From assembly GCA_030167865.1 (NCBI GenBank), contig JALAGF010003801.1:1-64000 (forward strand): 64,000 bases of DNA. Direction: 5' to 3'. The notes below the pieces were generated by a model that did not search any database, was not told the DNA's origin, and was given only the letters and a program-made list of their open reading frames with translations. Positions 2,454 through 25,489 of the stretch are shown here, in pieces (position 1 is the stretch's first letter; the number at the start of each line of letters is the position of its first letter). The DNA comes from Craspedostauros australis. Its lineage: Eukaryota. The translations under genes and the position numbers were made by a program.

Positions 2454-4013
2454 TCAAGCATGCTCGTTGACATGATCATGATCCGCAAGAGGCTCGTACT
2501 TGTAGTGAAAGAAGGACATCAGATCCTTGTCCAGCGCCTCCTGCGCGGCACGCAACTGGAAGTTGGGATAGTTGAGACGCCTCGTGGTGCTGTTGCCGTA
2601 CTTGATGATGGAGTTGAGCAACCCGTTCTCGCTGTCCGATAAATCGATGCCTTTGTTCTGATTGGCGCTGTTGGACGTGTGCACGAATCGACCATACGGC
2701 ATGAATTTGAAGTCCACGCACTCGCAGATCTTCTGAATGACATAACGTCCATGAAAGACCAGATCCTCCAAGCGTACTACAATACGCGGGAAGTCCGCCG
2801 TGCGCAAGTACTCCCGGTACCAGTCGTTCCACATGTGCGCCAAGGATCTGTACTTCACCTTGTAGTCTTCCATGTAGGCCACGTTGACGGGCATGTACTT
2901 CAGTTTGCCGTACCGCGCGTAGCCTCGGATGTCGTGCTGGTACGGCATGATGTTGGGACACAAGCTTTTGTTGTGCGCAAAGTGCGCGTTGTACGATTCC
3001 CTGCACATGGACTGCATCCACGTGTAGGGATCACGCACGACGACGATGGGAAGCACTGCCGTGTGATTGTACCTTTTGTATTGCGTCGCGTTGTGTTTGT
3101 GCCGCATGCCCGCTGGGAAGTGTTTGCCCCATGGCACTTGCCACAGGACTCCATGCGGCTTTTGTCTGTACTCCGGATTGATGCAGTTGGATTCGATGAG
3201 GGAGTGCAACAGGTTCGTACCCGAATTGAAGCTGCCCGCAACTGCGATCACCCGTCTCTTCATTTCCTTGATGTCACGGTATCGAGCGCAGTGCTCCTCC
3301 AATCCGTAAATGCGAGGCTCCGATCCGTACAGATCCATCACTTCGGACCATTTCGGTATCTGGCTCCATTTTTCCTGCGTGATGTTCGTCAGAGTTGAAT
3401 TAGCCGATCGCAGAATGTCGAGGATGGGCTCGATTTCCTTCTTCTTGTATTCATCGGCAGCGAGAGCAGCAGTGGCTGTGGCTGTGGTGGTGATGGCTGT
3501 GGTTATTGCAGATGATGAAGTGGTGCTGTCAGCAGTACTCGTGGTCGTTGTCGTTGGTGCAACAGGGGTTGTTGCTTCCGTCGTGGTCGAAGTGGTTGTA
3601 GTGGTGGTGGCAGTGGTGGTGGCAGTGGTGGTGGCAGTGGAGGAAGTAGTTGTGGTGCTCGTAGTGGTTGCTCTGGAAGTGGTGGTGGCCCTTCGTTTGA
3701 CTGTACTACGATTGTCTGACTTTGATCCCCCAGCGACCGCCTTTGGACTCGCACGTTGTGCTGCTCCTGTCGACTTCCCTGGTAACATCTGATGCTGCAT
3801 CTGATCCTGATCAAAATCAAGAGACGTGTGCAGATGCACAGCCGCCCAGAAGGTCATGGCCCAGGAAAGGAGCAGGAATGCCAATGACCACTTGAGGATC
3901 GTGCTCCATCTTCCCAATCGGACGGCACCAACAGAAAACGAGGATCTGCTGGCATGAGCGACGGTCGACGCCGATGCTTGCGTCAATTGTGATGCGCGAT
4001 GAGGGATGGCCAT
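2454..4013 (-). CDS. Type II membrane sulfotransferase-like protein with Thr-rich stalk
   Basis: 519-aa ORF. N-terminal TM (WSLAFLLLSWAMTFWAAV), Thr/Ser-rich linker, PAPS-binding-like motifs VAGSFNSGTNLL and VVVRDPYTWMQS, plus VRLEDLV. Confidence 0.75.
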   Translation of the reverse strand: MAIPHRASQLTQASASTVAHASRSSFSVGAVRLGRWSTILKWSLAFLLLSWAMTFWAAVHLHTSLDFDQDQMQHQMLPGKSTGAAQRASPKAVAGGSKSDNRSTVKRRATTTSRATTTSTTTTSSTATTTATTTATTTTTTSTTTEATTPVAPTTTTTSTADSTTSSSAITTAITTTATATAALAADEYKKKEIEPILDILRSANSTLTNITQEKWSQIPKWSEVMDLYGSEPRIYGLEEHCARYRDIKEMKRRVIAVAGSFNSGTNLLHSLIESNCINPEYRQKPHGVLWQVPWGKHFPAGMRHKHNATQYKRYNHTAVLPIVVVRDPYTWMQSMCRESYNAHFAHNKSLCPNIMPYQHDIRGYARYGKLKYMPVNVAYMEDYKVKYRSLAHMWNDWYREYLRTADFPRIVVRLEDLVFHGRYVIQKICECVDFKFMPYGRFVHTSNSANQNKGIDLSDSENGLLNSIIKYGNSTTRRLNYPNFQLRAAQEALDKDLMSFFHYKYEPLADHDHVNEHA

Positions 4014-4100
4014 GGCTTCGACATCTCCCCGTGCATAGGTGTGTGCGTGTATGAGAATAGCAATGAGGGTGGAATGGGTGCACGAGCAAGACTTGGTTGC

Positions 4101-4154
4101 TTGGTGTTGGTGTTGGTGTTGGTGTTGGTGTTGGTGTTGGTGTTGGTGTTGGTG
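4101..4154. repeat. (TTGGTG)n hexanucleotide repeat upstream of the sulfotransferase gene
   Basis: About 9 tandem ttggtg units. Confidence 0.9.
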
Positions 4155-6624
4155 CTGTTCCTCTCGTGCGGAGATGTGGTCACGGTTTGTTGGCGTGTGA
4201 CCACAATTGGTGTTGTGGTCATTGGCAGGATTGGATTGTCAATGTGAGTCCCTAATTGGATTCTAGCCAACATCTGTAGTCTAGAAAGAAAAGATACCTT
4301 TGTTGCCAAAGACCAAAAAACTTTTGGCGAGCGAGAAAGGCTTCTGTCGCGCGTGGCAGACAACAATCCAACAGAACAAAAATGGACACGAACATCGCCG
4401 ACCTCCTCAAACACGCACGCATGTGCTCATCGCACTAGTGTTGGCACAACCACCAGGATGGATCGCTCTGGATAGGATGCTCTGTAGTCGTACCATACGG
4501 CTGATGCGGTGGGTCATGGTTGCTGGTTATTCGCAGCGTGGAGTATTATCCTATCCAATAAATCCTCTCTCTGCTCGTAGTGATGCGGTGTTTGGAAGGA
4601 AGCTCTTGGAGGACAGTCTCTCTCATCCGTCATCCCCAACCTGTGTCTCTGTCCCTTTGCTTTGCTCTGCGAGGATGACATGTTCTCCGCTCTGCCTGGA
4701 GAGTCGGAGCCTCCGACGTCGCCATCACGTTCGCAGCTTTCGTTTTCGCATCCCCAGAGACAGGTATAAGTGTTGATCAACACGTTTGGAAGCAACACCG
4801 CCATCAGCGTCATCGTCATCATCATCGTTGTCAACGGAGCGAAGACTCTCTGTCTGGTCGTGATCTATTCCAGGCGAAGCATCGGAGTTGCAACCACATC
4901 CATGCCACCAGTTGGAAGAATCCTGACGCCGTTGTTCCTTTTTTGGCCAACGGAAGCTGTTGGCTTTCACTGCATTGGCCATCACGATCCGCGTTCACAA
5001 GATTGTTCGTTCTGGTTTTGAGAAATCACTCTTGCGCTTTTCCGGCCTTGCCGTTGTTGCAGTGGGGAAACTTCGGTGATCGCCAAATTTTCGTGCCGAC
5101 GCGTAAATCAACATCAACGGTTGGGCTGTATCGGGCCTTCGCCTGTGGTGATCTTGACATGGTGCGCGATGTCGAGCGTGCAGAGGACATTGTTGTGATG
5201 GCGTATCCTATTCTGTTGTCTTCTGCCGTTTGGTGCAGGGCAGCATTCCTTGGCTCTCTCTTCGGATAGAGAGCAAAGTATGCAGATTAATGTAGAGTAT
5301 TGCAGTAGTGTAGGACTGGTCGAACGTTGTTGGTGTGTTACGAGCAGATCGTCGCGTAGGCGACACTACTCGTGCGCTACTCAACTGCCACCGTCGCTGC
5401 TACCTCCTTCATCGTCACCCCTTCGTCCCGAACGCAAACATGCACATGAAGATACACGAAACAGAAACGAGACATGCGCATGCCAAATACAGATGGTCCG
5501 TATGTGCACCTTTGCGTACGGGAACCAAGTCTCCCCACCAAGCAATCTTCCTTGTTTGTTCGTATCCTTTGGTCGCCTGCTGATTTCGATTGCTAATTCG
5601 GCTTCGCCTCATCTGTGTGTTGGTTGTTTCTGGATCGATCCAATGCAAGGGACAACTTGAAGCAACACGAATTGAAGGTTGGGCCAATCGTTTTGGATCC
5701 TTCGATGGAAGGGTTGGAGGTTGTCGTGCAGGAGTCGTTGGACGAAGGGCAGCGCACTCGGATCTGAAACGTGAGGGTGATGGCTGTCCAAGATTGAGGG
5801 ATCGTGGCACCACCTCTCTTCGGAATGCAAGATACAAGTCCCGGGTTGGGTGATTCTTATGGTCCACCGGCGTGCTTCTTCTAAGTACCGAAAATGATAT
5901 ATTCATGCTTGTATTTTGCATTTATCGACGAATGTTAAGTATCCATGTCTTTCGTCGGTTTGTTTCCGTTGGGAAAAACTCGCAGATCGGCAGCGCACAA
6001 TTTTTCGCCCAAGGAATCAACTTCTCGTAAGTGCCAGAGTCACAGGGTTGTGCGGTATACGTAAAACTGTAGCGTTGCGTACTGTACCACGAACAGTGGC
6101 ACGGTGCGGATGCGTCTCGGAGCAAGCATGGCACGAGCGTGTACAGGTGTGGTACACGTGTACGCCCTTGTATTTTCCGTCTTCTTGTCAGTGGCAGAAG
6201 CCGGAAGAGCGACGACACTGGCAACTCCAACAGTGACACTTATTGAAAGGCGCGAGTTCGAGGCGCAGTGGTGCAAGAAGAGTGAACACAAGAGTGAGGC
6301 CCATCTCCCTCCACCTCCACTTCCTCTAACTCACTGAGTGCGCGGAACACACACATACAAACCCCACGAGCCTCACAAAGCACACAAACACCAATACTCC
6401 GTGGCAGTCGCTCTCCTTTCCTTCCTCCCTCCACCCCTTTGCTCTGCTCTTTCCACATGAACCTGCGACAACAACAAATTCCCACAACATCATCAGTTCA
6501 CAAAAACCAAACTCCCTCCAACTCAACAACATTCTGCAGCAATAGCAACAGTCTTACCAACAGTATTGCCAGCACCAACAATCACACAGTACAGCACAAT
6601 ACAGCACAGCATAACACAGCAACC

Positions 6625-7818
6625 ATGCCAAAGATCGAGTTCTCACCACTCACGTGCGCCGATTCACGCACGCACAGCAGCAGCACCATCTCCTCCACAT
6701 CGTACTCTGTGGATGCCACCCCCGAGTGCGGCTCCAGCCCATCGTCGTCGCCGTCGATGCCTGCCGCCAACGCATCAGACGACACAGAGCTGGTGCTGGA
6801 TCAGCTATCCATGATCCTGCACGCGGAGATGTCGTACCACGTGCCCAGCATCGAGTGCAGAGCCACGCACATCGAGGACGACCGCATTCCGTACGGCGAA
6901 TGGCGAAGGAAGATCTGCCAATGGTCCTTCAAGGTCATCGACCACTTCCGCCTCGACCGCAGCGTCGTCAGCTGCGCCATGAACCTCTTCGACCGCTACC
7001 TCGCGCTGTCCACCAAGTCCTACAACATGGACACCTGCCCTTGCCCGGCCTGCCAGCGATCCGTCGACAGCCGCACCTTCCAACTCACAGCCATGACCTC
7101 CCTCTACATCGCCATGAAGCTCAACTCCGAGAACGGCTGCGACGCCGTCGCCGGCTCCAGGCGGCTGAGGCTGCACTCCTTCGTCGATCTGTCGAGGGGA
7201 CAGTTCACGGGCAGCGACATCCTCGCCATGGAGCGCGTCATGCTGGCGGAGCTCAGGTGGAAGGTGCACCCGCCGACCCCGATGAGCGTCGTCTCCTACC
7301 TGCTCAGGCTCATGCCGCAGGCCCACGCCGTGCCCCACACCTGCCGTCAGAGCTACGATCTGGTGCTGCACGTCCTGCACGAGCTGGCCAGGTACCTCAC
7401 CGAGCTGTCCGTCTGCCTCGGCAGCGCATGCAGCTCGTACTCGCCGTCGCAGGTGGCCTACAGCGCCATCCTCGTCTCCATGGACCTCCTCACCGACATG
7501 GCCCTGCCGCGGCAGGTCCGCGATACCTTCAACGCCGGTGTCGTCGCGCTGTCGGCGTCCGGCAACGGCACCATCCTCACGCCTCACGACGAGGCCGTCC
7601 AATCCCTCATGCACAAGCTGCGCAACTCCTTCTGGCCAGAGATGCTCATGGATGATTGCGAGGCCACCGATCTGGGCCATCCCATCTCCATGGCGCGCGA
7701 CTTTGGTCTCCTCGAGATCGGCACCTGCAAGCCGACCGCTTGGCATCCCAGCCCCAAGTCGGTCCTCGACGATCCGCAGGTCTCGCCTACTTCTGTTTCA
7801 CGCGGAACCAGAGTGTAG
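6625..7818 (+). CDS. Cyclin (diatom-specific-cyclin type)
   Basis: ATG in aaccATG context at 6625. Cyclin box WRRKICQWSFKVIDHFRLDRSVVSCAMNLFDRYL...FQLTAMTSLYIAMKL...LSRGQF...ILAMERVMLAELRWKVHPPTP; C-terminal fold ARYLTELSVC...PSQVAYSAIL. Confidence 0.93.
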   Translation: MPKIEFSPLTCADSRTHSSSTISSTSYSVDATPECGSSPSSSPSMPAANASDDTELVLDQLSMILHAEMSYHVPSIECRATHIEDDRIPYGEWRRKICQWSFKVIDHFRLDRSVVSCAMNLFDRYLALSTKSYNMDTCPCPACQRSVDSRTFQLTAMTSLYIAMKLNSENGCDAVAGSRRLRLHSFVDLSRGQFTGSDILAMERVMLAELRWKVHPPTPMSVVSYLLRLMPQAHAVPHTCRQSYDLVLHVLHELARYLTELSVCLGSACSSYSPSQVAYSAILVSMDLLTDMALPRQVRDTFNAGVVALSASGNGTILTPHDEAVQSLMHKLRNSFWPEMLMDDCEATDLGHPISMARDFGLLEIGTCKPTAWHPSPKSVLDDPQVSPTSVSRGTRV

Positions 7819-13389: not shown

Positions 13390-14203
13390 GTGGGAATCAT
13401 GTGCAAGTGGCCTGTCATCCAATACGCTGCGAGCAGCGAGTAGCGCGCAGCTCGGAACTGGGGGGAGAGCCGAGAAGCGATACAGCAGCGTGGTGGATGC
13501 TCGTGCTCGTACCCGTAGAGTATCGTGCTATTTGTACCCGCGCGGGTACGCAGCGTGAAGAATCCGTCGAGAACCTATCGGCAGCCACATGTTGCACAGT
13601 ACGCAATGAAGTATAGTGTAGTCGTACAACTCGTATTGTAAAATATTACATGTGATAATAGGAGAATAATCAACAGTGGTGCGAATGATACCTGCACTGA
13701 GGATGAGGGGAGTTGTCTGGGAGCCCCAGCGTATGCCTCGCTCACGCGTTCTCATGTGTTGACACCAGGCTTGTTCCGTGAGAGCGTTGCACCTTCGCGG
13801 TTCTCAAGTGGTTTCGCACAACACCGTGAACCACAACATCGCGAGTGTGGTGTCCACCCCAGATCAAACACGCAATGAAGACACAGCTCCAAGAGTATTC
13901 AGCATCACGCCACTGTGCATCCACCTTCTCACAGCAACACATCATACCATACACACAAGAGCTTCATCACAATTAATAATTCACACGAGCTAGCCTGGTT
14001 AATTGTCGACGCACGCAGACGACAGCAATGATTGGTGCTGCAGCCACGAATCCAGGACGGGTGGTCGCAGAATGCATTGCTCCGACTTGGCACCGTTCCT
14101 TCCATTGCCATTGTTATTGCCATCGCAATGGCCGTTGCTGCTATTGTCGCTGCTGCTGCCGTCGTCATCATTCCCACAACCATCGCAAGAGGGGATCAGC
14201 ATG

Positions 14204-17200
14204 TTACTGAAGGGCCGGGAGGACTTCGTTGAGCTTTGCCTTCACCTCGTCCTCCACCTTGCTGGTTGGTGCCACAGCCTCTGTGAATATTCGCTTCAGC
14301 TCCGGCTTCTGGGCCACGGCATCCGGGTGGTTCATCTGGACGAGTCCGAGGAGGCAGGTGTATATGGTCTCGTTCTCCGTCATGTCCGTCTTCAATGGGA
14401 GGAGCTTCAGCATGGCTGGGAGGACCTGTGGCATGGGCAGGTTGTTGGGGCACGCCATGATCATTCGGGCGATGGCAGCGGCGGCGTTGTCCACGCATGC
14501 CGCAGATGTCTCTCCGCCTGTAGGGTTGATGTGAAACAACGGTTCCAAGGCCTGCAGGATCTGCGGGTAGTTGTCGACGACGCGTTCCTTGAGGTGTTCA
14601 CAGCACACACCGGCGCAGAAGGCGGCGTTGCGCTTGACGTCTTCGGATGGATCGGCGAGACCGGCCATGACTGCCGGGAGGAAGACTGTTTGCCAGTGCT
14701 CAAAGATTGCGCCTTCGAGTTCTTGCGCAACCTCGCTGAGCCATCCGAGGGCCATCGATCGATCACGCGGAGGTCTTGAGGATTTTGCGTATTCGCAGAT
14801 GGCGGCGAGGAATTGTGGGAGGTACTGGGCGAACTGTGCTCCCAGGATACGTCCGAAGCCGCCGACCAAGTCGCAGGCGGCCTGTGTCACGATGTCGTGA
14901 TCGTCGTCGTCCTCTGGCGATTCACCGTACAGCTCGTCTGCTGTTTGGCACGGTGCCGCCTTGATGAGGAGCTTGTGGGTGTTCTCCATGCACTCCTGTG
15001 CGACTGGGAGGAGAGCGTGCGGTCCGCAAAGTTCGATGACGGATTGGATGCCTTCGCATGCCTTTCCGACCGTGGTCTTGTCGTCGTCCTTCATCAAGGC
15101 GATGAGCTCGGCCAGTACGGCAGAGACGATGGCATTGGTTGGCTGGTCCATTGGGTTTGGACCAGTCACGTCGCCCTTGGTCCACTGGATCTCGCCGTCG
15201 TGGTACGCGGAAACGCATGGCACGACGAGATTGGGCATGGCATCTGCGACTTCGCTCTTGATGAGCGGATGCCAGTTGGTCGCGGCCTTCTGAAGGACCT
15301 GCATGACGACCTCAAGATGCGGGCAGAACGCAGCGCCGGTGTGGGCTGCCATCTCACCCACGGCAGTGATGGCACCCTTCTTGACTTCGAGAAGGGCGGT
15401 GCGGACATGCAGCACGAAGTTTCCAGCGCCTTCATCCTCGTTGTCGGAATCGTCCAAGTTGTTGAATTGTCCAGCCTGTGGGGTTGTGAAAAGTAACGAT
15501 TGCAACTCACGCTGTTAGCCAAACGAATGAAGACAGGCGCGAAGTCAGTGTGGTATCCTGTTTCTCTCTTTCGCTCTCTCTCTCTCTCTCTCTCTCTCTT
15601 TGTTGCACATGCACACATGCACACGCACGCATGGAAGCAGGCAGCAGGTATTGCACAAACACACAGAAAGCAAAAGTCGCGCACCCATGCAATGCAATGC
15701 TGTACGCATTGTACGTTTGTGGATCGTGTTTGCTTACCCTCTCAACTTCTTCGGCTGGCTCCAATTGACCTTCGTCGGTACCGATGACCTGCACCAGGTG
15801 CGGAACGAGCTGCGGCAAGGCGGGGGCAAATTCCTCCTTCATGACCTTGGCGAGGTTGGCGAAGACAGCGTAGGCAAACTCGTGCAGGTCGGTGGAATCG
15901 CGGGTGAGTCCCTCGCAGGCACATTCCATGGTGGCCTTGAAGTAGGGGCGGAAGGTCTCGCGTCCGACGGCGATGGCCATGTGTCCCATGCACTCCAGGG
16001 CACGCCCGCGCAGGGAGTACAGCTTTTCTTCCGTCAGCGCCATGCACTTCGTCATGAGCGTGGCGACGCCTCCCACGTAGGGGGTGAATTCCTCCTCGGC
16101 GGCCACGGCTGTTGCAGCGAGCGCTGCCACGGCCATTTCCTGGACGCTGCGCTTGGTCGTGCCTTCGAGCATCTGGGCGAGCTTTCGGACGAGGGCGTCG
16201 AGCAGCGGTCTGACAGCCTCAGGTTCCAATCTCTCGCAAAACATTTCCAAAACGTAGCACGATGTTGCCTGGACTGCCACCTGGTTGTCGTCGAGGAGCT
16301 TGAAGACGATCGGCAGGATCTGATCGGAGTAGGACAGGACCTCCGGCTGGCAGTGTTCGGATATCTGTCCGAGGCAGAAGCAAGCGCATTCCCGGACCTG
16401 TGCGTCGGAGTCGCTGGCGGCATTCAAGACATGCGGCATGATTTCCTGCAGGTGCTCCCGGAGCGGCTCGGAACAGCCTTCGGCAATGACGCCGAGCCCG
16501 GCGATGCCCGCTTTTCTGTGATTGGCCTGTGGAGAAGTCAAACGCTGCACACATCTGGACACGGCCGGTTGGAAGATGTACTTCTTTGGGATTTCGCACG
16601 CCAGCATGTCGAGGGTTCCCTGCGCCATGGAGGTTTCGGATGGCGAATCGAGCTCCGGATCGTACTCATCCTCGTCTGCGTCCTCCAGGTCCTGCCTCCA
16701 GGCCGGGTTGGACTCGAAGAGAGCGCCGGCGGCGGAGTCCGGGGAGTTTTCAATAAGCGCAAAGAGAGTTTCGAGGACCTGGGCGAGGAGCTGCTCGTCC
16801 TTGCCGAAGGTGCGTGGCTTGGATTCTGCGAGGGTGGCGATGACGAGGGCCGCGGAATCTCTGACGCCCATCTCCAGGTCCTTGGTCTGGATGCATTCGA
16901 GTCCGAAGTGGACCATCGCGATGAGGTGCACGGCAACGGCCTGGGAGGGCGAGTAGGCAAGATCGTAAAGGACATCGAGAACGGTGCTGACCAACTCCTC
17001 CTCGCTGTGCATCTTCCTCTGCTGGCTGGCCACCTGCAGGATGGGTGGGATGAGACCGGCGAAGACCTCGACCTCCGGCTCGTCGGCCAGGTAGGAGAGG
17101 AGCTGGCCGAGGGCCTTGACCGCCGCCCTCTGCACCTTGGGATCCTCGGTGGGGACGAGGGCCTTGGCGAAGAGTCCCGAGATGGGTTCAAACTGTGCCT

Positions 17201-18132
17201 TCAAATGCAATCCGATCGTCTCCGTCATTTCCTGCAGCAACCAAAACGCCAACTCCCTCGCCTCTACCTGCTGCACATCGGCCGCAGCGGCTGCCGCGAT
17301 GAACTGGAAGAGCTCTGGCCAGGAGGTGCCGCCTGCCCCGCATTCCAGCTTTGCCAAGGATGCAGCCACGCCGACGAGTCCATTGCGGACGGATCGCTCT
17401 GGTTCCTGTCCGATAATTACCAGGATTTCAGCCTTCAACGACGTCTTCATTGGCACGTCGAACTTCGCGTAGTGTCCAGCGAGACGCTTTCGCAAGAGGA
17501 TGCCTGCCACATGACGAACAGGAGGTGGCTGTGATGGAGTGCAAATATAATATCATAGGTAAAGTAGGTGCAATAGGTAAAGCGGGCATGGAGTGGAGTG
17601 TAGGGTGATTGGAGATGAGGTGGAAATTCGGAGAATGGTGGTGTAGGAGAAACGAGCATGGGTCAATGGTTGAGTGGGTTGAGTGAGTGGGCGTCATTTG
17701 GTGTGATGTGATGTGAGTGATGTGATGTGACACAATGCGATGAAACACAAAGGCATATCCGTAAGTCCCTAGCAACGGGTGTCACGTAAGCCTCCATCGA
17801 ACCATCGCAATGACGGAGAGGTCAACGATGATCGCTTGATTCTTTTGTTTGTGTGGTACAGACACAGAACGCAGGCAGGCGATCGAAAGCAATCGAAAGC
17901 AAAGCAAGAACAATGCTATGCAATGCTATGTCCATGCTACGCAACATGCCGCATGACACAAAGAGCAACGTACGTGGACCTCTTTTGCCTTGAGGATCTC
18001 CACCAAGGCTGGAACGCTGCGTGGATCCTTGAGCAGGGGCTTCAGGGAAAGTTCGGCCTGTCGAATGGCCTCCGTGTCCGGCTGAGTGAGCACCGCAAGC
18101 AGTTGGCTGAGCTGAGCGGCGTCGGATGACAT
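14204..18132 (-). CDS. IPO4: Importin-4 (karyopherin beta, Kap123-like); 3 exons, ~1073 aa
   Basis: Exons 18132-17974, 17528-15738 and 15475-14204 joined by phase-0 GT-AG introns. N-terminus LTQPDTEAIRQAELSLK...VRHVAGILLRKRL; HEAT repeats with GVIAEGC, VRECACFCLGQISEHCQPE, LRGRALECMG, VKRNAAFCAG, DNAAAAIARMI, LPLKTDMTE. Confidence 0.92.
15573..15599. repeat. (CT)n microsatellite in importin-4 intron
   Basis: Direct dinucleotide run. Confidence 0.85.
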
Positions 18133-18309
18133 GATGGAAGACTCCTGCTTGCTTCTTGCTTCGTGGCTGTTGCTTCGTCTTGGTCTGCCTCTCGCTGATG
18201 CTGATGTTGCTGATGCTGCTGCGAAGAAGTCAATGGAAGTCCGGATGGATGGGATGCGCTTGATGCAATCTTTTATGGTGCGCTCAGAGCGAACCTCTGC
18301 AGCGTACTT

Positions 18310-18510
18310 GTGTCGTGCTCGTTGTCGTGCTCCTTGTCGTGCTCGTTGTCGTGCTCGTGGGATGCCTTGTGGTGGGTGTTTGCTACTGCTGTCCCTGCTT
18401 TGTTGCTGTGATTCTCACTCTGTTGTGGAGGCAGGCGACGAGTAGCAGAGTTGATGGTGAGGCACGGATGGTGATGAGGATGGTGATGAGGATGGTGATG
18501 AGGATGGTGG
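18310..18510. repeat. Two 12-bp tandem arrays upstream of importin-4: (tgtcgtgctc[g/c]t)x4 and (gatggtgatgag)x3+
   Basis: Seen directly at ~18311-18358 and ~18467-18508. Confidence 0.85.
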
Positions 18511-19112
18511 TGGTACTTCGTCGCTCGATTCTCTGCCGTCTTTGCCGCAAGCAGGAGTGTGGCCAATGGTTGGAACGGCGGTGATCTTCGAAGCAAGTGG
18601 TTGGTCGAGAGCACGTTGTTGGTCGGGCGATTTCGTGTCTTCGCCGTCCTGTCACACCTCCGCCACCACGAATTTCTCACGCTGATGTTTCTCTTGTGTC
18701 CTGTCACATAGCCACGACCACGATGACCAACCGCAAAAATCCTCTGCTCTCTGCGACACCACCAGCGAACGCTTGGAATACCGTTGTTCTTCCCTCCTCT
18801 TTCTTTGTCCATCGTCCATCGTCCATCATCCAGGCATCATCACGTCACATGGGGTTGCCTCTCGTTGCCGAATTTTTGGTTTGCACAAACTCCACCACAA
18901 TCCAATGGCTGCGAGGGACACAGACAGACGGGTCACGAGGATCCACTTCCAAGACTGAACTGTGTGTGACTCCGACTTGCCATGATTGAAAATAGGAGAG
19001 GCTTTCGAAGTGTGTTCTTGGCTTCACCAACACATGGATGTCCTGTTTACGTGGGACCAGAGAAATCCTATCTGGTACCCACTATCATTTCGCCGATACT
19101 CGCAATACTCTA

Positions 19113-19507
19113 CCGTTTCGCTCGGCTTGGAAACGGAAGAGAGGTGCGCGGTGAGTCGTGGGCTTCGTGAAAACGGAAGTACGACTCGCCCTGTCATCCA
19201 AACTCTCTCCAGATTTGTGCCCACGTAGCCGTTGGGCTAAGTTTTTCGAAGATGTCGGCGAAACTATCCGTTGATGTGGGTTGCCGTTGGCGGAGACGCC
19301 AACGGAATTTGCCGTTGGCGCGTGACCGTATCTCGCCGTTTTGTTTGGTCATCTTATCGGCATGGTGTTGGCAGCGCCTCGGGCGCGACAGAAACCGTTA
19401 TCGCAACCTCTAAACATCGTGCCGAGCCTCCTCTCACCACCACACAACAAGAGAGCGGTGCGCCAATCTGTTTAGCGTCCCACAATTTGAATTTCGCGAA
19501 ACCCAAT
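19113..19507 (+). promoter_or_regulatory. Cluster of MYB/MSA-type AACGG elements with CCAAT boxes and a CHR-like TTTGAA (G2/M-type promoter)
   Basis: AACGG/CCGTT at 19113, 19132, 19172, 19229, 19268, 19284, 19301, 19312, 19336 and 19395. 19226-19236 reverse complement CCCAACGGCTA fits the MSA consensus YCYAACGGYYA. CCAAT at 19463 and 19503; TTTGAA at 19486. Confidence 0.65.
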
Positions 19508-19794
19508 CAACGAAGACACCAACAAACATCAACAGACAGCTCACAGTCAACCCTTTCCATTTCAAAGAGGCGCTCACCACCAAACACACGCCATCTACCG
19601 CCATTTCCGTCAGCGCAACGTCGTACCCCACGAGCAACTCCAACAAGCAACAGAAACAAGAATTCCAACAACAAGGGCGCCAACTCCAACAGCAACACCA
19701 ACAGCAATAACAACAGCACTATCTGCACCAGTGCCAACAAGAACACCATCATCCCATTGCGGACAAGCACAAAGAAGCAGGAAAGGAACCCACA

Positions 19795-21175
19795 ATGGCG
19801 ACGCAACAAATCAACCGCAACGGCAACAGCAACAGCATGAATAACATGAACACCATCATCATGAGCAGCAACCACGGCAGCATCACTGGCGCCAGAACGC
19901 AGGGAGGCCGCAAACCACTGCAGAGCATCAGCGTTAACTCGACCTCATCACCGTCTCCGGCGAAGAGGACCACAATGGTGAGCGAACATTTCCTTATCCG
20001 GCATCAACTGAGTTAGCGCGCATGTTGAAGCGCGCACCCCCTGCAAATTCAAAATTGGTCATCCACGATCATTCCAGCTGATCGCCATACTGTATCGGCA
20101 CGGAAATACTCGCCGACTGTGTCTCAACGGAAGTCGTACAAGCCGGTTGGCTTTTCTACGATTGCGTTGCCCCCACCAAAATTTTGTCCAAAATAGGCTT
20201 GCACCATGCCAGTCAATCGTCCGAACGCTGTCACATGCAAATTTTGGGCAAACTGCACACAGAGCACCAGTATCGTACTCGCACTCATGCGAACATTCCC
20301 ACTGACCCCCATACTCACACCAACCTTTCATCACGGTGAAACGCTCCTCGATCTCATTCATCCACACTTGTGCACAATGCAATCGATTCCTTCCATTCCA
20401 CCCTCCTCGGTCTCACAAAATCCAATCAAACTCACAAACGAAACATCATACAAACGCAAACGCACATCCACCCACACCCACACACACGTTCAAATACACT
20501 TTCAAACCATCCCGCAATTGTATCAATCATCCTCCCTCCACTCTGCACCCACAATCGTTCAAACCAAACCAATTCATTTCACATCGCGCCTCAACAAAAC
20601 ACAACAACGACGATACAAACAACATGACTGCCACAACCATGCCTGAAATGACTTGCTCCATCTCCACACAAACCGGCCACAAAACGCAACCCATGTCACC
20701 ACTCTCCGTCTCCGACCTCCCCATCCTGCAGCTCTCCAAGCCAAACTACACGGTGGACTTCCGCAAGAGAATGACAGCAACCACTCTCCCACGCAACGAC
20801 AAGCTCCGCATCCTCAACGAGGTCGGCGAGCCATCTGAGGCAAACATCACCACCATGACGGTCAGCACCTTCGACAACGAGCCATCCACGCCATGCCTCG
20901 AGGCAGAGAACTCCGAGGAGCTGCACGAGTCCAAGCCGCTCATCTTCCGCGATGCGCCACGGCTTGCACTCCCGGCACTGGATGAGGAAGACGAAGACAT
21001 CTTCGTCCTGAAGAGAGCCAACCCGGTGTACGACAGCGAGGACGAGGAGTACTTCATGAGCAGCCCAGCAAAGCGACGCCGAACAAACGAGTCCGAGTCC
21101 ACCATTGCCCTTGGCTGGAGCGACCGAGTCTCCGTTAACGACGATGGCAACTTCCGCATCCAGTTTCAGCTGTAA
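19795..21175 (+). CDS. Hypothetical disordered cell-cycle protein with D-box-like and CDK/NLS motifs; 2 exons, ~208 aa
   Basis: Exon1 19795-19977 (RKPLQSISVN, SPAKR), ATG|GTGAGC donor at 19978, CTGCAG acceptor ending 20731, exon2 20732-21175 in phase 0. Exon2 has coding-like C/G third positions, an acidic tract and SPAKRRR. An alternative in-frame ATG lies at 20624. Confidence 0.65.
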
Positions 21176-21670
21176 GCAGCAGAACGCGCGACCGTCCCGG
21201 CGATAACAACGACAGCACAAGCTGTCACGCCGCTCCCCATCATCATCGTATAACCCCGTCGTCTACCACCCTAAACATCACCGACATTACAAGCATCCCG
21301 CAAAATAGAAAGAAATCACACATCTTACACCAACGTCAACATGGATTTGTCTCTGTAGCTATTTCGTGATTTCGTGTGAGTGAAACACGACCAGCGCTTC
21401 TACCATGATACGGAGCGTTGGAATCGTGTTGTTGGAAAGAAGAAACACAGACGTGCTCTTCGTGTCATGGTTCGTTGTCCGCAGACTCGAAGAATGAATG
21501 GGTGCGCAATCTTGCCTACGATGAGAATAAAGTTGGGTTGAATTGGGCAGTGATGTGGGCTCATCCTTTGCGTACGAGCACCGGTACTACTATCATCATT
21601 GCGTGCATGCACACCAGTTCGATGGCAATACATAGTGGCCAGGGTGCTACTGCTCCTGCTCCTGCTCCTC

Positions 21671-22399
21671 CTACGCAACTTCAAGCTCTCCGTTGGAATG
21701 AAGGGTGCACCGTATCGGTTCTGCATTCACTGGGCAGATGGATGCGGACTGCAGCAAAGCCTTGATGACATAGAAGTGACAGACGATCGCGATGGTCGTT
21801 TCGGACCGCTCATCGTACAGCCATTGCAGGATGTGACTCGCCCTGTCACGGCCGGAAGCGACGCCGCTTGTTGGTCTCGACGACTCGGTATCCGCATCAA
21901 CGATGTGACGATCGTCGCCCACGTCCAGTTCTCGCAGCACGGTCTCCATCTTGCGTGGCCAGTTCTCAGGGATGCCGGATCCCATCTCTCGCAGGTCGTG
22001 CTGCACGACGATATCGTGCTGCCGAAAGCCCAGCATCGCCGTGTGCAGAGCTCGCGTGAGCGGCGACGAGACCACGAGCTGGATGGAGCCCATTTGCTCC
22101 TCAGTTAGCAGGCGCGGGATGTCTTTCGCCTGCTGAACGCCCAACCTGGTCAATCCGCAGTCTCGCAAGGACGGATCCGTCTTTCGATTCAGACCCATCA
22201 TTCTTGCTGTCTGACCCAGCGATTGACCGTGGCGTACGAGCCAGACCGTCTTGGTTGCGGCGCTGCTCTCACTATCTCGCTTGTGATTCCCCGTTGAGGC
22301 ATGAGTGGTTGTTGCACCACGATTCGAGGAGGCCATCGTGTTGGATGCAGGTGGAGGGCTGCGGCGCTTCTGCCTGCCATGGGAGCTACGTTTGGGCAT
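21671..22399 (-). CDS. Histidine phosphatase / phosphoglycerate mutase-like protein
   Basis: VWLVRHGQS, LT..G..QA, VVSSPLTRALHTA, LREM, IAIVCH motifs. Start uncertain (MPKRSS at 22399). Confidence 0.85.
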   Translation of the reverse strand: MPKRSSHGRQKRRSPPPASNTMASSNRGATTTHASTGNHKRDSESSAATKTVWLVRHGQSLGQTARMMGLNRKTDPSLRDCGLTRLGVQQAKDIPRLLTEEQMGSIQLVVSSPLTRALHTAMLGFRQHDIVVQHDLREMGSGIPENWPRKMETVLRELDVGDDRHIVDADTESSRPTSGVASGRDRASHILQWLYDERSETTIAIVCHFYVIKALLQSASICPVNAEPIRCTLHSNGELEVA

Positions 22400-22828
22400 C
22401 GTCCGGCCGATGATCGTTCCGAGTGATGTCAGCAGTGGTTTCCGTAGCTGAGGTGGTTGCGCGAGGACGACAATGAGGAGGATGTTGGCAAGTGGTGCTT
22501 TGTCTGTGAGTTGGTATGCGCGCTGATCGTTGCATGTTGTGGACCTTTCGGAGGGCATTTGTTGTTGGAGTGAATGGCACACGTTTGGACCATCGTGCTC
22601 ACGACTGAACTTGAAACGGTTTGTCCGTCGTACGGACAAAGAAATGGCGCCAAATCTGCTGTCTACCCGAATGTGATCATGGTAATGTCCCAGGTGGTCC
22701 AGGTTCGCTCTGAGTACCATCAACATAGGTGTCATGCAGCGCTTCTGCAGGGTCCAATGCAAAGGGTTCTTGGTGTCGATGCTCTGGCGTGCTCCAGCAG
22801 GGCTAGCTCGGTGACGAAAGCGCTAAAT

Positions 22829-22856
22829 CATAGAATAGAATAGAATAGAATAGAAT
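22829..22856. repeat. (ATAGA)n pentanucleotide repeat
   Basis: atagaatagaatagaatagaatagaat. Confidence 0.85.
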
Positions 22857-23399
22857 CGTAAGATGTTATCCCTCGCATGCGCCATTGTGATTCGCGAATC
22901 GCAGAAAGGAGGTGAGCAGCGGGGGATTGTTGGTTCACGATCCCTCCTGTTCCATTCGAAGCCTCATTGCATGACTATGTCCATGTCTATAATTGTTGAC
23001 TACGTAGTTGCTCATAGTCAGGTGCACAATAGCATGCGATCGCGTACCATGTTCAATGCCGGCCCATGCTCAGCGACAACAATGAGCGCTGCGAACTAGT
23101 TCTTTCGCAAGCAACAGCTCTCTGTGAAGACGGTCATAGGGGAATGAAACGCGAGCAACAGTCTACGTTAAGCGTGGGTTGCAGACGAGACGAGACGAAG
23201 CGAAGGTGGCCAAACTTCCCCATGAACTACGCTTGCACCATGTCGCTATCAACGCGTGAGTCAATCGCGACATCTCGCGACAACCACCTTGCTCTATCGC
23301 CAAATGCTGCTCCATGACGTAACGGAGCAATGAGCACATTGCGCTATCCCTCATTGCCATCATTGTCTGTTGTCATCCAGAATACGAGGCACGACACAA

Positions 23400-24047
23400 T
23401 CACTCCATGGGCTCCAGTCGATAATCATCCGTGATCTCCATCTTCAAAAATTGTCTTGCCGCCGCATAATCCTCCTGCTCCGGATACATCTCCACGCGCC
23501 AGATGCCCGGCACGATAACCCGCACCTCGAGCTCCTTCCGCAGCGCCAGCTCGTAATCCATCTTGAGCTGCTCGACATCCTCGATCGACGACGACGACGA
23601 CGATAGCAGCTGGGCCTGCCCTTGCCGCAGCCGTTGCAAGGCGGCCTGCCGACGCGGTCCCACCACATCGGCCAGCTCATTGAACCTCGCGTCGTAGACG
23701 TACCATCCCCAGATGGCGAGGAAGATGACGAGGAGCACCGGCGCCGAGACGAGGCTGCGGATCTTGGGACTGCTGAAGAGGGCGCCCGTCAATAGCAGCG
23801 TGCGGTAGAGTTGCGAGCTTGTGGCCTTGTTCCATAATGAAGGCTTGTCGTCATCATTGTCGTCATTCTTGCGCGCTGCTGTCAGGGCCGTGTGTTGTTG
23901 TGCGTAGCGTGGCATCGTGGTATGTCGGCTTGGGAGGAGCGATGTGATATGCGTGTGAGAGAATGCTGTTGACGACGGCACGATCGTGCAGAGAACGGCG
24001 AGGAGCAACGCCGTCGTTCGGTGAATGGTCGGTGCGGCGGGCATCAT
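23400..24047 (-). CDS. Hypothetical plastid-targeted membrane protein
   Basis: Signal peptide ending STA-F (ASAF-type), Ser/Thr/His-rich transit-like segment, hydrophobic segments LLLTGALFS and VSAPVLLVIFLAIWGWYVY; high-GC coding pattern. Confidence 0.7.
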   Translation of the reverse strand: MMPAAPTIHRTTALLLAVLCTIVPSSTAFSHTHITSLLPSRHTTMPRYAQQHTALTAARKNDDNDDDKPSLWNKATSSQLYRTLLLTGALFSSPKIRSLVSAPVLLVIFLAIWGWYVYDARFNELADVVGPRRQAALQRLRQGQAQLLSSSSSSIEDVEQLKMDYELALRKELEVRVIVPGIWRVEMYPEQEDYAAARQFLKMEITDDYRLEPME

Positions 24048-25489
24048 GGTCGTTGGCACAAAGTGTTGGGTCGATCAAATGAATGGTCTGACCATTGATG
24101 TGGTTTCGTGTCGAAGATACGCAGTGCTCTGTTATTGACGATGGTGTTGGCGACGTCATCTTGTGGCAACAGTTGCGGTGTTGGCTGAGTGATGTGTGGA
24201 TTCTGTTCTGCCGACGCAAGTGGAAGAAAGATACAATGTTAGTACCATAATTATGGTTTCTCTACCACTTGAATCAACGTTCATATTGTAGATATACCTT
24301 ATATATAGTACATTGTGACAGATGGCCGAACAGACACGTTTTGGGGACACGATGGTGACCAAGCACGTTTTCCGTTCCACACAGAACGGAAGCGCGTGTG
24401 ACAAATTTGTGGAGGAATGAGAAGTCACATCGGACGCGGTTGGCTGAAAAAGACCGACATGACGCAGACACAACACAAGAGAGGTCAGACAGAAAGAAGA
24501 GAAAAATGGGGGAACTCATCGCGCCATCTCTGCGCGTTTAGCGATCGGCGGTGGTCCGAACAGAAAAAAACTGGGGTGACTGATGTGGAAGCGCGGCGGC
24601 GCAACACGCGAAACGTGAAGCGCGTTGAGGTATGACACAAACACTCCCTCCACCCACCGACTCACTCACCCACCAACACGCAAGCGGTTCTCGTCCTCGT
24701 GACACCCCCTCTCTGACTCCATCCGCACTCTTCACCTCATCTCATCTCTCTCCCTTGCAGTAGCGTCAGATCCTCTGTTCTGTTCCACATCACTCACACA
24801 CACACACACACACACAGATACAGAGGTGCAGAGAGACGGTGTCCTTCAGATCAACAAAAAGGACGAGCAAGTCAAGGCCAAAAATTCAAACTCCGCAGTT
24901 TCTTCGCGTTGTCTTGCTATCTTCGTTTGCTGCTTTGGTTGGGTCCTTGGATCATCATCGTCATCATCTTGCTCCAATCGGCAACGATCCACCACCATTG
25001 TGGCAATAGAGAGGATAGGAGCACTGACACCACAAGGCATCTCCCCCCGCTTTCCACATCGACACCTCCCCAATCTCTGCTTCAACCACAGTCGCAGTAC
25101 CGCCGCGCACACGCAATAGTTCGCGCCACACACAAACAACACAATAGTCGTACGACACAACACGGCAAAGTGCGACAAGATACACGGCGCTCCGCGATAC
25201 TTCACGTCGCTCTGCCATCCGAACTTCCAAATTTCAGCTTTCTCAGCGTTCTCAACACAAAAGATCTCCATCGGAACCATCATCGGACCTTCGCACAATC
25301 GCAAGTTCCAGCACCATCCACCTCAACATCACGCTCAACATTACCCTCAACAGCCGCAACAGCAGCCGCAACAACGCCGATAGGAACACCATTGCTCGTC
25401 CTGCAGAACACCCGACAATACCAACAACTATACTCATACCGACACCCACCATACCAATAGTAACAGCAACAGCAGCAGCAACAGAAAAG

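Follow-up and report, generated by a model that had tools for sequence, protein, structure and literature searches.

A dense cluster of candidate Myb sites upstream of a diatom gene with two putative alternative first exons

Results

The locus and its neighbourhood

The window, by which we mean the whole stretch of 64,000 nucleotides that was analysed, comes from a raphid pennate diatom, judging from the nearest named relatives of a cyclin encoded at 6625-7815 (Cyclin_N and Cyclin_C). This cyclin has 212 relatives, and those with a name belong to Nitzschia, Cylindrotheca, Bacillariaceae MAGs, Pseudo-nitzschia, Fistulifera and Seminavis ('diatom-specific cyclin'). An earlier sequence-only reading of this DNA had already assigned it to a diatom, and the cyclin bears this out. 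The region of interest contains the following features:

17975-18133, minus strand: first coding exon of an importin-5-like gene (IPO5 and HEAT families), the divergent neighbour, judged not to be the target
19113-19399, no strand assigned: cluster of ten AACGG/CCGTT cores, from a motif search on both strands
19128-19179, plus strand: two TGRAAACGGAAG copies, 40 bp apart, with a purine preceding AACGG; possible second site type
19229-19318, no strand assigned: four CCAACGG heptamers, including the full MSA match CCCAACGGCTA and the repeated TTGCCGTTGGCG
19460-19507, plus strand: proximal block with GCGCCAAT, TTTGAA (19486-19491), the palindromic TTTCGCGAAA (19492-19501) and CCAAT (19503-19507)
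19508-19794, plus strand: CA-rich stretch with CAACAG-type repeats, the putative 5' leader of the exon 1a transcript
19795-19977, plus strand: exon 1a, 61 codons, ATG at 19795, GTGAGC donor at 19978
19978-20623, plus strand: part of intron 1 of the exon 1a transcript, presumed promoter/leader of the second start
20624-20731, plus strand: exon 1b-specific coding part, starting with MTATT and contiguous with exon 2
20732-21175, plus strand: common exon 2, acceptor CCTGCAG/CTC, in phase with exon 1a

The start codon of the importin gene is located at about 18133 on the minus strand, 1.0-1.3 kb away from the core cluster, and the divergent intergenic region measures 1.66 kb. Just upstream of this start codon lie 12-nt tandem arrays of the TGTCGTGCTCGT and GGATGGTGATGA types (18311-18368 and 18466-18512), which are noncoding by codon score.

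With the importin exon as query, 80 metagenome loci (523 kb) were obtained, among them L003, L064 and L033; together with the 64-kb window they make up a comparison set of 587 kb. In L003, where the importin is 83% identical, tblastn matches were obtained for the His-phosphatase, for the 183-aa body of the plus-strand gene and for residues 28-61 of the ORF starting at 19795, and the order and orientation (His-phosphatase, gene body, exon 1a, importin) are those of the window. L064 (75% identical) likewise contains the gene, including an exon 1a homologue with a donor. Between the importin gene and the exon 1a/1b gene, L003 carries a DTW-domain gene (5081-6106, minus strand; Pfam PF03942, E 4e-22). 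A DTW gene is also located upstream of importin in L033 (184-1104), a contig that ends before the exon 1a/1b gene; it is absent from L064, and the intergenic region of the window contains neither the gene nor a remnant of it. According to their source labels, two Cylindrotheca fusiformis proteins, the cyclin relative P0045 and the exon 1a/1b relative P0140, share one scaffold as models.24 and.28, in agreement with the order found in the window (cyclin, unknown, 2-oxoacid dehydrogenase E2, importin, exon 1a/1b gene).

The plus-strand gene and its two first exons

The gene downstream of the cluster (19795-21175 in the window, 3722-4633 in L003 and 5049-6213 in L064) appears to have two alternative first exons and two promoters. 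Exon 1b and exon 2 together form an ORF of 183 aa (20624-21175) that is present in the public protein collection with one close relative, and exon 2 carries the conserved C-terminal domain (IFR...LKRANPVYDSEDE...KRRRT...W). Exon 1a has a codon score of +0.16 in frame and encodes R-K-P-L-Q-S-I-S-V-N, which resembles a D-box, as well as S-P-A-K, a CDK-consensus site. The exon 1b form would contain neither the D-box-like motif nor SPxK.

Three genomic loci and the transcripts of other species suggest a splice from 19977 to 20732, which appears to join exon 1a to the 183-aa protein body. Exon 1a ends in phase 0 at a donor in all three loci (GTGAGC in the window, AAG/GCAAGT in L003, GTAAGC in L064), and each of them has a phase-0 acceptor CAG just before the 'SKP' codons of the body. 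The L064 body lacks an early ATG and its frame contains a stop shortly before the acceptor, so that it would be expressible only when spliced. When the spliced window model was aligned with P0162, a single block spanned the junction (residues 18-202 vs 2-158, E 2e-22). In P0162 and P0154, both derived from MMETSP culture transcriptomes, an exon 1a-type N-terminus with the motifs R[RK]P[LF]Q...VN and SPSPAKK is joined directly to the body. A different N-terminus (M..SR.LTC.YNRRR), the counterpart of the one that starts at 20624, is found in P0002, P0133, P0140 and P0146. Both alternative first exons are conserved across diatoms.

The ORF 19795-20016 (73 aa) had no match among 1.84 billion representative proteins and is absent as an exact sequence from the public protein collection. 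These empty searches had cast doubt on the 19795 gene, a doubt removed by P0162 and P0154 together with the exon 1a homologues of L003 and L064.

Contigs of X1, a small run presumed to be RNA that contained 20% of the sampled window words, match 20642-20897 and 20913-21207 at full identity with no joint, and the first of them is continuous through 20731. In this comparison over 13500-24500, X1 matched exon 1a, the leader and the cluster by nothing but a 33-nt CAACAG repeat in the leader, which has no bearing on their expression. The sole transcript evidence from this organism is the exon 1b form.

The gene had been regarded as an orphan, but a profile search revealed a family of 50 unnamed proteins, eight of which have a source label. 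The protein is small and fast-evolving, and its named relatives are all from diatoms, except for P0162, which is labelled as ciliate culture. Pfam searches at E values up to 1 with seven family members and the window pieces of this gene gave no family, a PDB sequence profile search with this protein returned nothing, and an ESM Atlas search with P0001 gave no usable match. The classical D-box reads RxxLxxxxN, and D-box and SPxK sites are common to many mitotic APC/C substrates. The motif R[RK]P[LF]Q...VN is kept in five of six aligned sequences, with F replacing L in two, and its N is located one residue further out than in the classical form.

At the other end of the protein, the C-terminal domain can be multiplied. 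L064 encodes it at 5049-5834 (minus strand) as three near-identical tandem copies (DLPPQIFRE...LKRASPVYDS...KRQRLSQE...W), and the collection proteins P0124 and P0125 contain two copies.

A cluster of ten AACGG cores

The cores of the cluster start at 19113, 19132, 19172, 19229, 19268, 19284, 19301, 19312, 19336 and 19395; AACGG is read from the minus strand in seven of them and from the plus strand in the other three. They are located 400-680 bp upstream of the exon 1a ATG, in a region that the codon score marks as noncoding (ORF 19241-19837: -0.13). The sequence-only reading had counted ten cores in about 290 bp against roughly 0.6 expected and six YAACGG in about 170 bp, and both counts were reproduced here: in 287 bp 0.55-0.61 cores are expected, and six of the ten are of the YAACGG form, lying between 19229 and 19395 (175 bp; 0.16 expected, P 2e-8). 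Ten cores have a Poisson P of 4e-10, which rises to about 9e-8 when multiplied by the number of segments of this size, and with a background of noncoding sequence only (codon-score mask, 2.13 cores per kb) P is 1.2e-9. In the whole 64-kb window, the 122 cores (1.9 per kb) compare with a mean of 110 in dinucleotide shuffles.

When all 5- and 6-mers were ranked by their most extreme 290-bp cluster in the window, AACGG came 23rd, and the 22 words above it are all simple or codon repeats (CA-, GA-, AAG- and GCAGC-type). The AACGG cluster is thus the strongest non-simple-repeat 5-/6-mer cluster in the window. The related contigs (80 loci, 523 kb) contain at most five cores per 300 bp, with at least four cores at 12 places.

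The extended MSA consensus is YCYAACGGYYA. One of the ten cores matches it in full, as had been claimed before: TAGCCGTTGGG at 19226-19236, which reads CCCAACGGCTA on the minus strand. Three further cores carry CCAACGG, and the resulting four heptamers (19229-19235 minus, 19284-19290 minus, 19299-19305 plus, 19312-19318 minus) are packed into one 90-bp span (19229-19318), out of 13 in the window. A purine precedes AACGG in four of the ten cores, two of which share the longer word AAACGGAAG and may represent a different site type.

The cores have differing flanks and occur on both strands. The only local repeats in the cluster are TTGCCGTTGGCG (two copies, 28 bp apart) and TGRAAACGGAAG (two copies, 40 bp apart), and with just these two short repeats present, a long tandem duplication was ruled out as the origin of the cluster. 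Two other readings were discarded. A heat-shock-factor reading of GAAACGGAAG was rejected by eye because its GAA units are direct and not inverted, and an snRNA-type Myb (SNAPc) promoter is unlikely since an Rfam scan of the whole window gave no family match.

Recurrence of the CCAACGG cluster at an orthologous gene

The 80 loci contain 45 CCAACGG heptamers in addition to the 13 of the window. In the 587 kb, at least two of them fall within 200 bp at two places only, 19229-19318 in the window and 4313-4477 in L003 (a post hoc statistic), and the three heptamers of the latter place are all the copies present in that 9.3-kb contig. Both clusters are located in the 5' region of orthologous genes. 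Their positions differ: the L003 cluster lies downstream of exon 1a and before the exon 1b start, the window cluster upstream of exon 1a. The 5' region of L064 has no cluster (two cores vs 1.04 expected), and noncoding alignments of the window with L003 and L064 showed nothing shared beyond words of 8-11 nt. An exact 11-mer, GTGACCGTATC, occurs in both clusters (19322-19332 in the window, 4342-4352 in L003); it is adjacent to the GCCGTTGGC site in the window and 76 bp off in L003, and its sharing may be due to chance (E 0.67 in a small comparison).

This recurrence is the main evidence for functional sites that would belong to the plus-strand gene. Since CCAACGG clusters only there and at the L003 orthologue, the motif can be assigned to the plus-strand gene rather than to the divergent importin gene. 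The sequence-only reading had proposed control of the downstream gene; the recurrence in L003 speaks for this part, whereas its gene model has to be revised, the 19795 ORF being exon 1a. Regulation of the importin-5-like gene would be conceivable because the cluster lies within the shared 1.66-kb intergenic region. Against it, none of the 31 importin loci for which 1.2 kb or more of upstream DNA was available has a comparable cluster (at most five cores per 300 bp), and in L003 the DTW gene separates the importin gene from the cluster, which stays with the exon 1a/1b gene; we therefore regard the importin gene as a highly improbable target.

It might also be that the cluster has no function and arose from local duplication of short words or by chance. 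The two short repeats inside it, the lack of a cluster in L064 and the unconserved position would fit such an origin, but a P value of about 1e-9, sites with different flanks on both strands and a cluster of the same heptamer at the L003 orthologue and nowhere else in 587 kb make it very unlikely. The Myb-site cluster is probably a real control element, because one related diatom has a cluster of this motif, though a smaller one, at the same gene.

The proximal block

Between the cores and the CA-rich leader, GCGCCAAT reads TTGGCGC on the minus strand and overlaps a CCAAT at 19463; TTTGAA (19486), TTTCGCGAAA and a second CCAAT (19503) follow. CCAAT, TTTGAA and TTTCGCGAAA had been reported from the sequence at these positions and were found there. 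For CCAAT, two boxes occur in 81 bp where 0.19 would be expected (P 0.016); for TTTGAA, the single copy contrasts with an expectation of 0.02 (P 0.02). Both P values are post hoc and uncorrected, and the enrichment of these words is nominal only.

In animal late cell-cycle promoters, CCAAT boxes are located upstream of the CHR with a spacing of about 31-33 bp, and a CDE, which is present in CDE/CHR promoters only, lies 4 nt upstream of the CHR. Here, the CCAAT boxes are 40 bp apart with TTTGAA between them, and TTTCGCGAAA abuts the 3' side of TTTGAA on the plus strand, while a minus-strand reading gives a 3-nt spacer. Neither the CCAAT/CHR nor the CDE/CHR spacing is found at this locus.

LIN54 has been described to read TTYRAA in the available text of one study (PMC4974476). 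With 48 TTYRAA, the window lies below the mean of 59 obtained in shuffles, and eight of the 48 fall within 1.56 kb at 19004-20563. The stretch 19978-20623 holds four TTCAAA (20048, 20489, 20501 and 20558) and one CTCAACGGAAGT (20126), and its TTTGAA/TTCAAA count of four compares with 0.17 expected. TTYRAA is thus locally enriched, mostly before exon 1b. For the animal-type CHR/CCAAT promoter that had been proposed, this means that the local TTYRAA enrichment lends support and the layout of CCAAT, TTTGAA and TTTCGCGAAA does not. L003 and L064 showed no such enrichment when scored as TTTGAA/TTYGAA, and in L003 a TTTGAA comes 11 nt after one CCAACGG. Two of the three TTCAAA at 20489, 20501 and 20558 are contained in a repeated word, CGTTCAAA. 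By eye, 20300-20626 is a C/A-rich sequence of about 320 nt without an AG dinucleotide before the ATG at 20624.

E2F-like words precede exon 1a in all three species. The window has TTGGCGC at 19315 and at 19460 (minus strand) as well as TTTCGCGAAA, L003 has GCGCGAAA, the exact TTTCGCGC and GGCGCGAA, and L064 has TTCCCGCG. The words of the proximal block match TTTSSCGC at seven of eight letters and none matches exactly; an exact TTTSSCGC is absent from 19000-19794 and 19978-20623 of the window and occurs once before exon 1a in L003. A promoter that is mainly of the E2F type (G1/S), with the Myb cores in a secondary or modulatory role, could be read from these words, all the more as TTGGCGC is cited, in the text available to us, as a CDE that E2F can bind (PMC4974476). 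However, TTSSCGC is not significantly enriched in the window, L003 or L064 (P 0.09-0.38), the window lacks the exact word in its 5' region, and the Myb cores give a much stronger signal, so that we consider a mainly E2F-driven promoter distinctly unlikely.

Discussion

We lean towards a homotypic site array that would serve a 2R- or 3R-type Myb factor and act on the adjacent plus-strand gene. A predicted Myb-domain factor of the R2R3 or R1R2R3 type would bind the array through the core YAACGG, with CCAACGG as the best-defined form. The array would then be a cis-regulatory module of the plus-strand gene and would, in this species, drive the exon 1a promoter. Transcription from exon 1a would add an N-terminus with the D-box-like motif and S-P-x-K, and the exon 1b form would come without both. 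Output tied to division, late in the cell cycle or in meiosis, may be expected by comparison with plant MSA elements and with the Myb and CPP motifs of Cylindrotheca. We grade the Myb-type regulatory module as probable and its mitotic reading as plausible. YAACGG itself does not separate 3R from 2R Mybs, nor does it fix a phase of the cell cycle.

The array resembles the MSA/MYB3R promoters of plants (CYCB1, NACK1, SCL28) in that several AACGG cores, oriented either way, lie no more than a few hundred bp from the presumed gene start, and one site fits the extended consensus. In plant MSA promoters, the number and orientation of the sites near the start vary, and the plant examples in the available text have two to four cores (PMC10905365), unlike the ten found here. 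Further differences are the stramenopile lineage and the location of the cluster before one of two alternative first exons, at a place that differs in the related species. The c-Myb response element (YAACNG/YAACGG) is matched by the six YAACGG cores, in contrast to the four cores with a purine before AACGG.

A comparison within the lineage comes from Cylindrotheca closterium, also a raphid pennate diatom, for which a regulatory network with the same two motif classes and division-related genes has been presented (bioRxiv 10.64898/2026.03.25.714157). According to the available part of this preprint, Myb3R genes exist in diatoms, expression during meiosis and gametogenesis can be predicted from Myb and CPP motifs, the Myb targets show an enrichment of M-phase genes, and Myb3R5 is silent in vegetative cells (bioRxiv 10.64898/2026.03.25.714157). 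The network is a machine-learning prediction from 500-bp promoters in sexual stages, and its available text mentions neither an individual locus nor a cluster architecture nor the present gene family.

The MSA-like sites, the nearby TTYRAA, the D-box-like motif and SPxK of exon 1a and the Myb/CPP report of the preprint together argue for division-linked output. A more specific form of this idea is the switch proposed in the sequence-only reading, of the plant/animal G2/M type, in which an R1R2R3-Myb and a MuvB-like complex, with a CXC/CPP protein reading TTYRAA, would activate the exon 1a promoter. It is supported by the MSA-like cores with one full consensus match, by eight of 48 TTYRAA in 1.56 kb with four TTCAAA against 0.17 expected before exon 1b, by the CCAACGG of L003 that is followed by TTTGAA 11 nt on, by the conserved D-box-like motif and SPxK, which by analogy recall mitotic APC/C substrates, and by the diatom Myb/CPP motifs and M-phase targets in the part of the preprint at hand (bioRxiv 10.64898/2026.03.25.714157). 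TTYRAA and CCAAT near the presumed start are also known from animal CHR, CDE-CHR and CCAAT promoters (MuvB-LIN54, B-Myb-MuvB, NF-Y). However, the block departs from the animal layout: the CHR is placed between CCAAT boxes 40 bp apart and not downstream of them, and the CG-rich element abuts its 3' side instead of lying 4 nt upstream. To our knowledge, animal CHR-type promoters are usually without Myb-site arrays. In addition, TTYRAA (tested as TTTGAA/TTYGAA) is not enriched in L003 and L064, and among the papers listed by a literature search on LIN54, LIN9 and DREAM none mentions a diatom or stramenopile, which leaves the CPP family as the basis for a diatom MuvB. We therefore treat a G2/M switch of this type as a tentative possibility that is more likely wrong than right. 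A division-linked switch to exon 1a made by the Myb module together with TTYRAA, which would provide a destructible isoform only around mitosis or meiosis, is in our judgement rather unlikely.

Exon 1a might instead be switched on in meiosis or gametogenesis, and not in the vegetative cycle, by a sexual-phase Myb network of the Myb3R5/Myb2R2 type. Such timing would agree with the preprint, where, as far as its text is available, Myb/CPP motifs predict meiosis and gametogenesis and Myb3R5 is vegetatively silent (bioRxiv 10.64898/2026.03.25.714157), and with the fact that the only recorded form of this organism is exon 1b. The exon 1a-type proteins P0162 and P0154 derive, however, from MMETSP culture transcriptomes, and we hold a purely sexual-phase use of exon 1a to be improbable.

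An MSA-like promoter module of Myb sites is known in kind, but no such locus was found described in this lineage. Our literature search, part of which ranked papers by term counts and is thus no proof of absence, found no locus-level MSA-like or CHR-like promoter for diatoms, and the C. closterium preprint of 2026 (bioRxiv 10.64898/2026.03.25.714157) was the sole relevant literature found on diatom Myb/CPP division motifs. In a diatom cell-cycle survey of 2010, CDK inhibitors and CDC25 were not found, and the words Myb, MSA and promoter are absent from its available text (PMC2872877).

If the division-linked switch to exon 1a by the Myb module and TTYRAA were true, stramenopiles would have their first case of MSA/CHR-type late cell-cycle logic at the level of a locus, and the protein could be a regulator, for example a CDK inhibitor, that was missed by diatom surveys such as the one of 2010, as far as its text is available (PMC2872877). 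Any link of the Myb array to division would extend Myb-driven late cell-cycle transcription to stramenopiles, and diatom research would gain a promoter with phase-specific activity as well as a new candidate cell-cycle protein; without such a link, the locus would still be a clean example of a homotypic Myb-site module. In either case it offers a compact test case, with ten candidate Myb sites in less than 300 bp, a partner cluster at the orthologue in a second species and the use of exon 1a versus exon 1b as an easily scored readout.

Besides the cluster at 19113-19399, the window contains one other YAACGG cluster, located at 4832-5230, with five CAACGG in 290 bp and an AAACGG at 5226. It sits in a noncoding stretch of 2.4 kb between the ORF 2457-4238 (minus strand), which is coding-like and has no Pfam family, and the cyclin gene (ATG at 6625). 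The ORF 4679-5266, which overlaps this second cluster, is noncoding by codon score.
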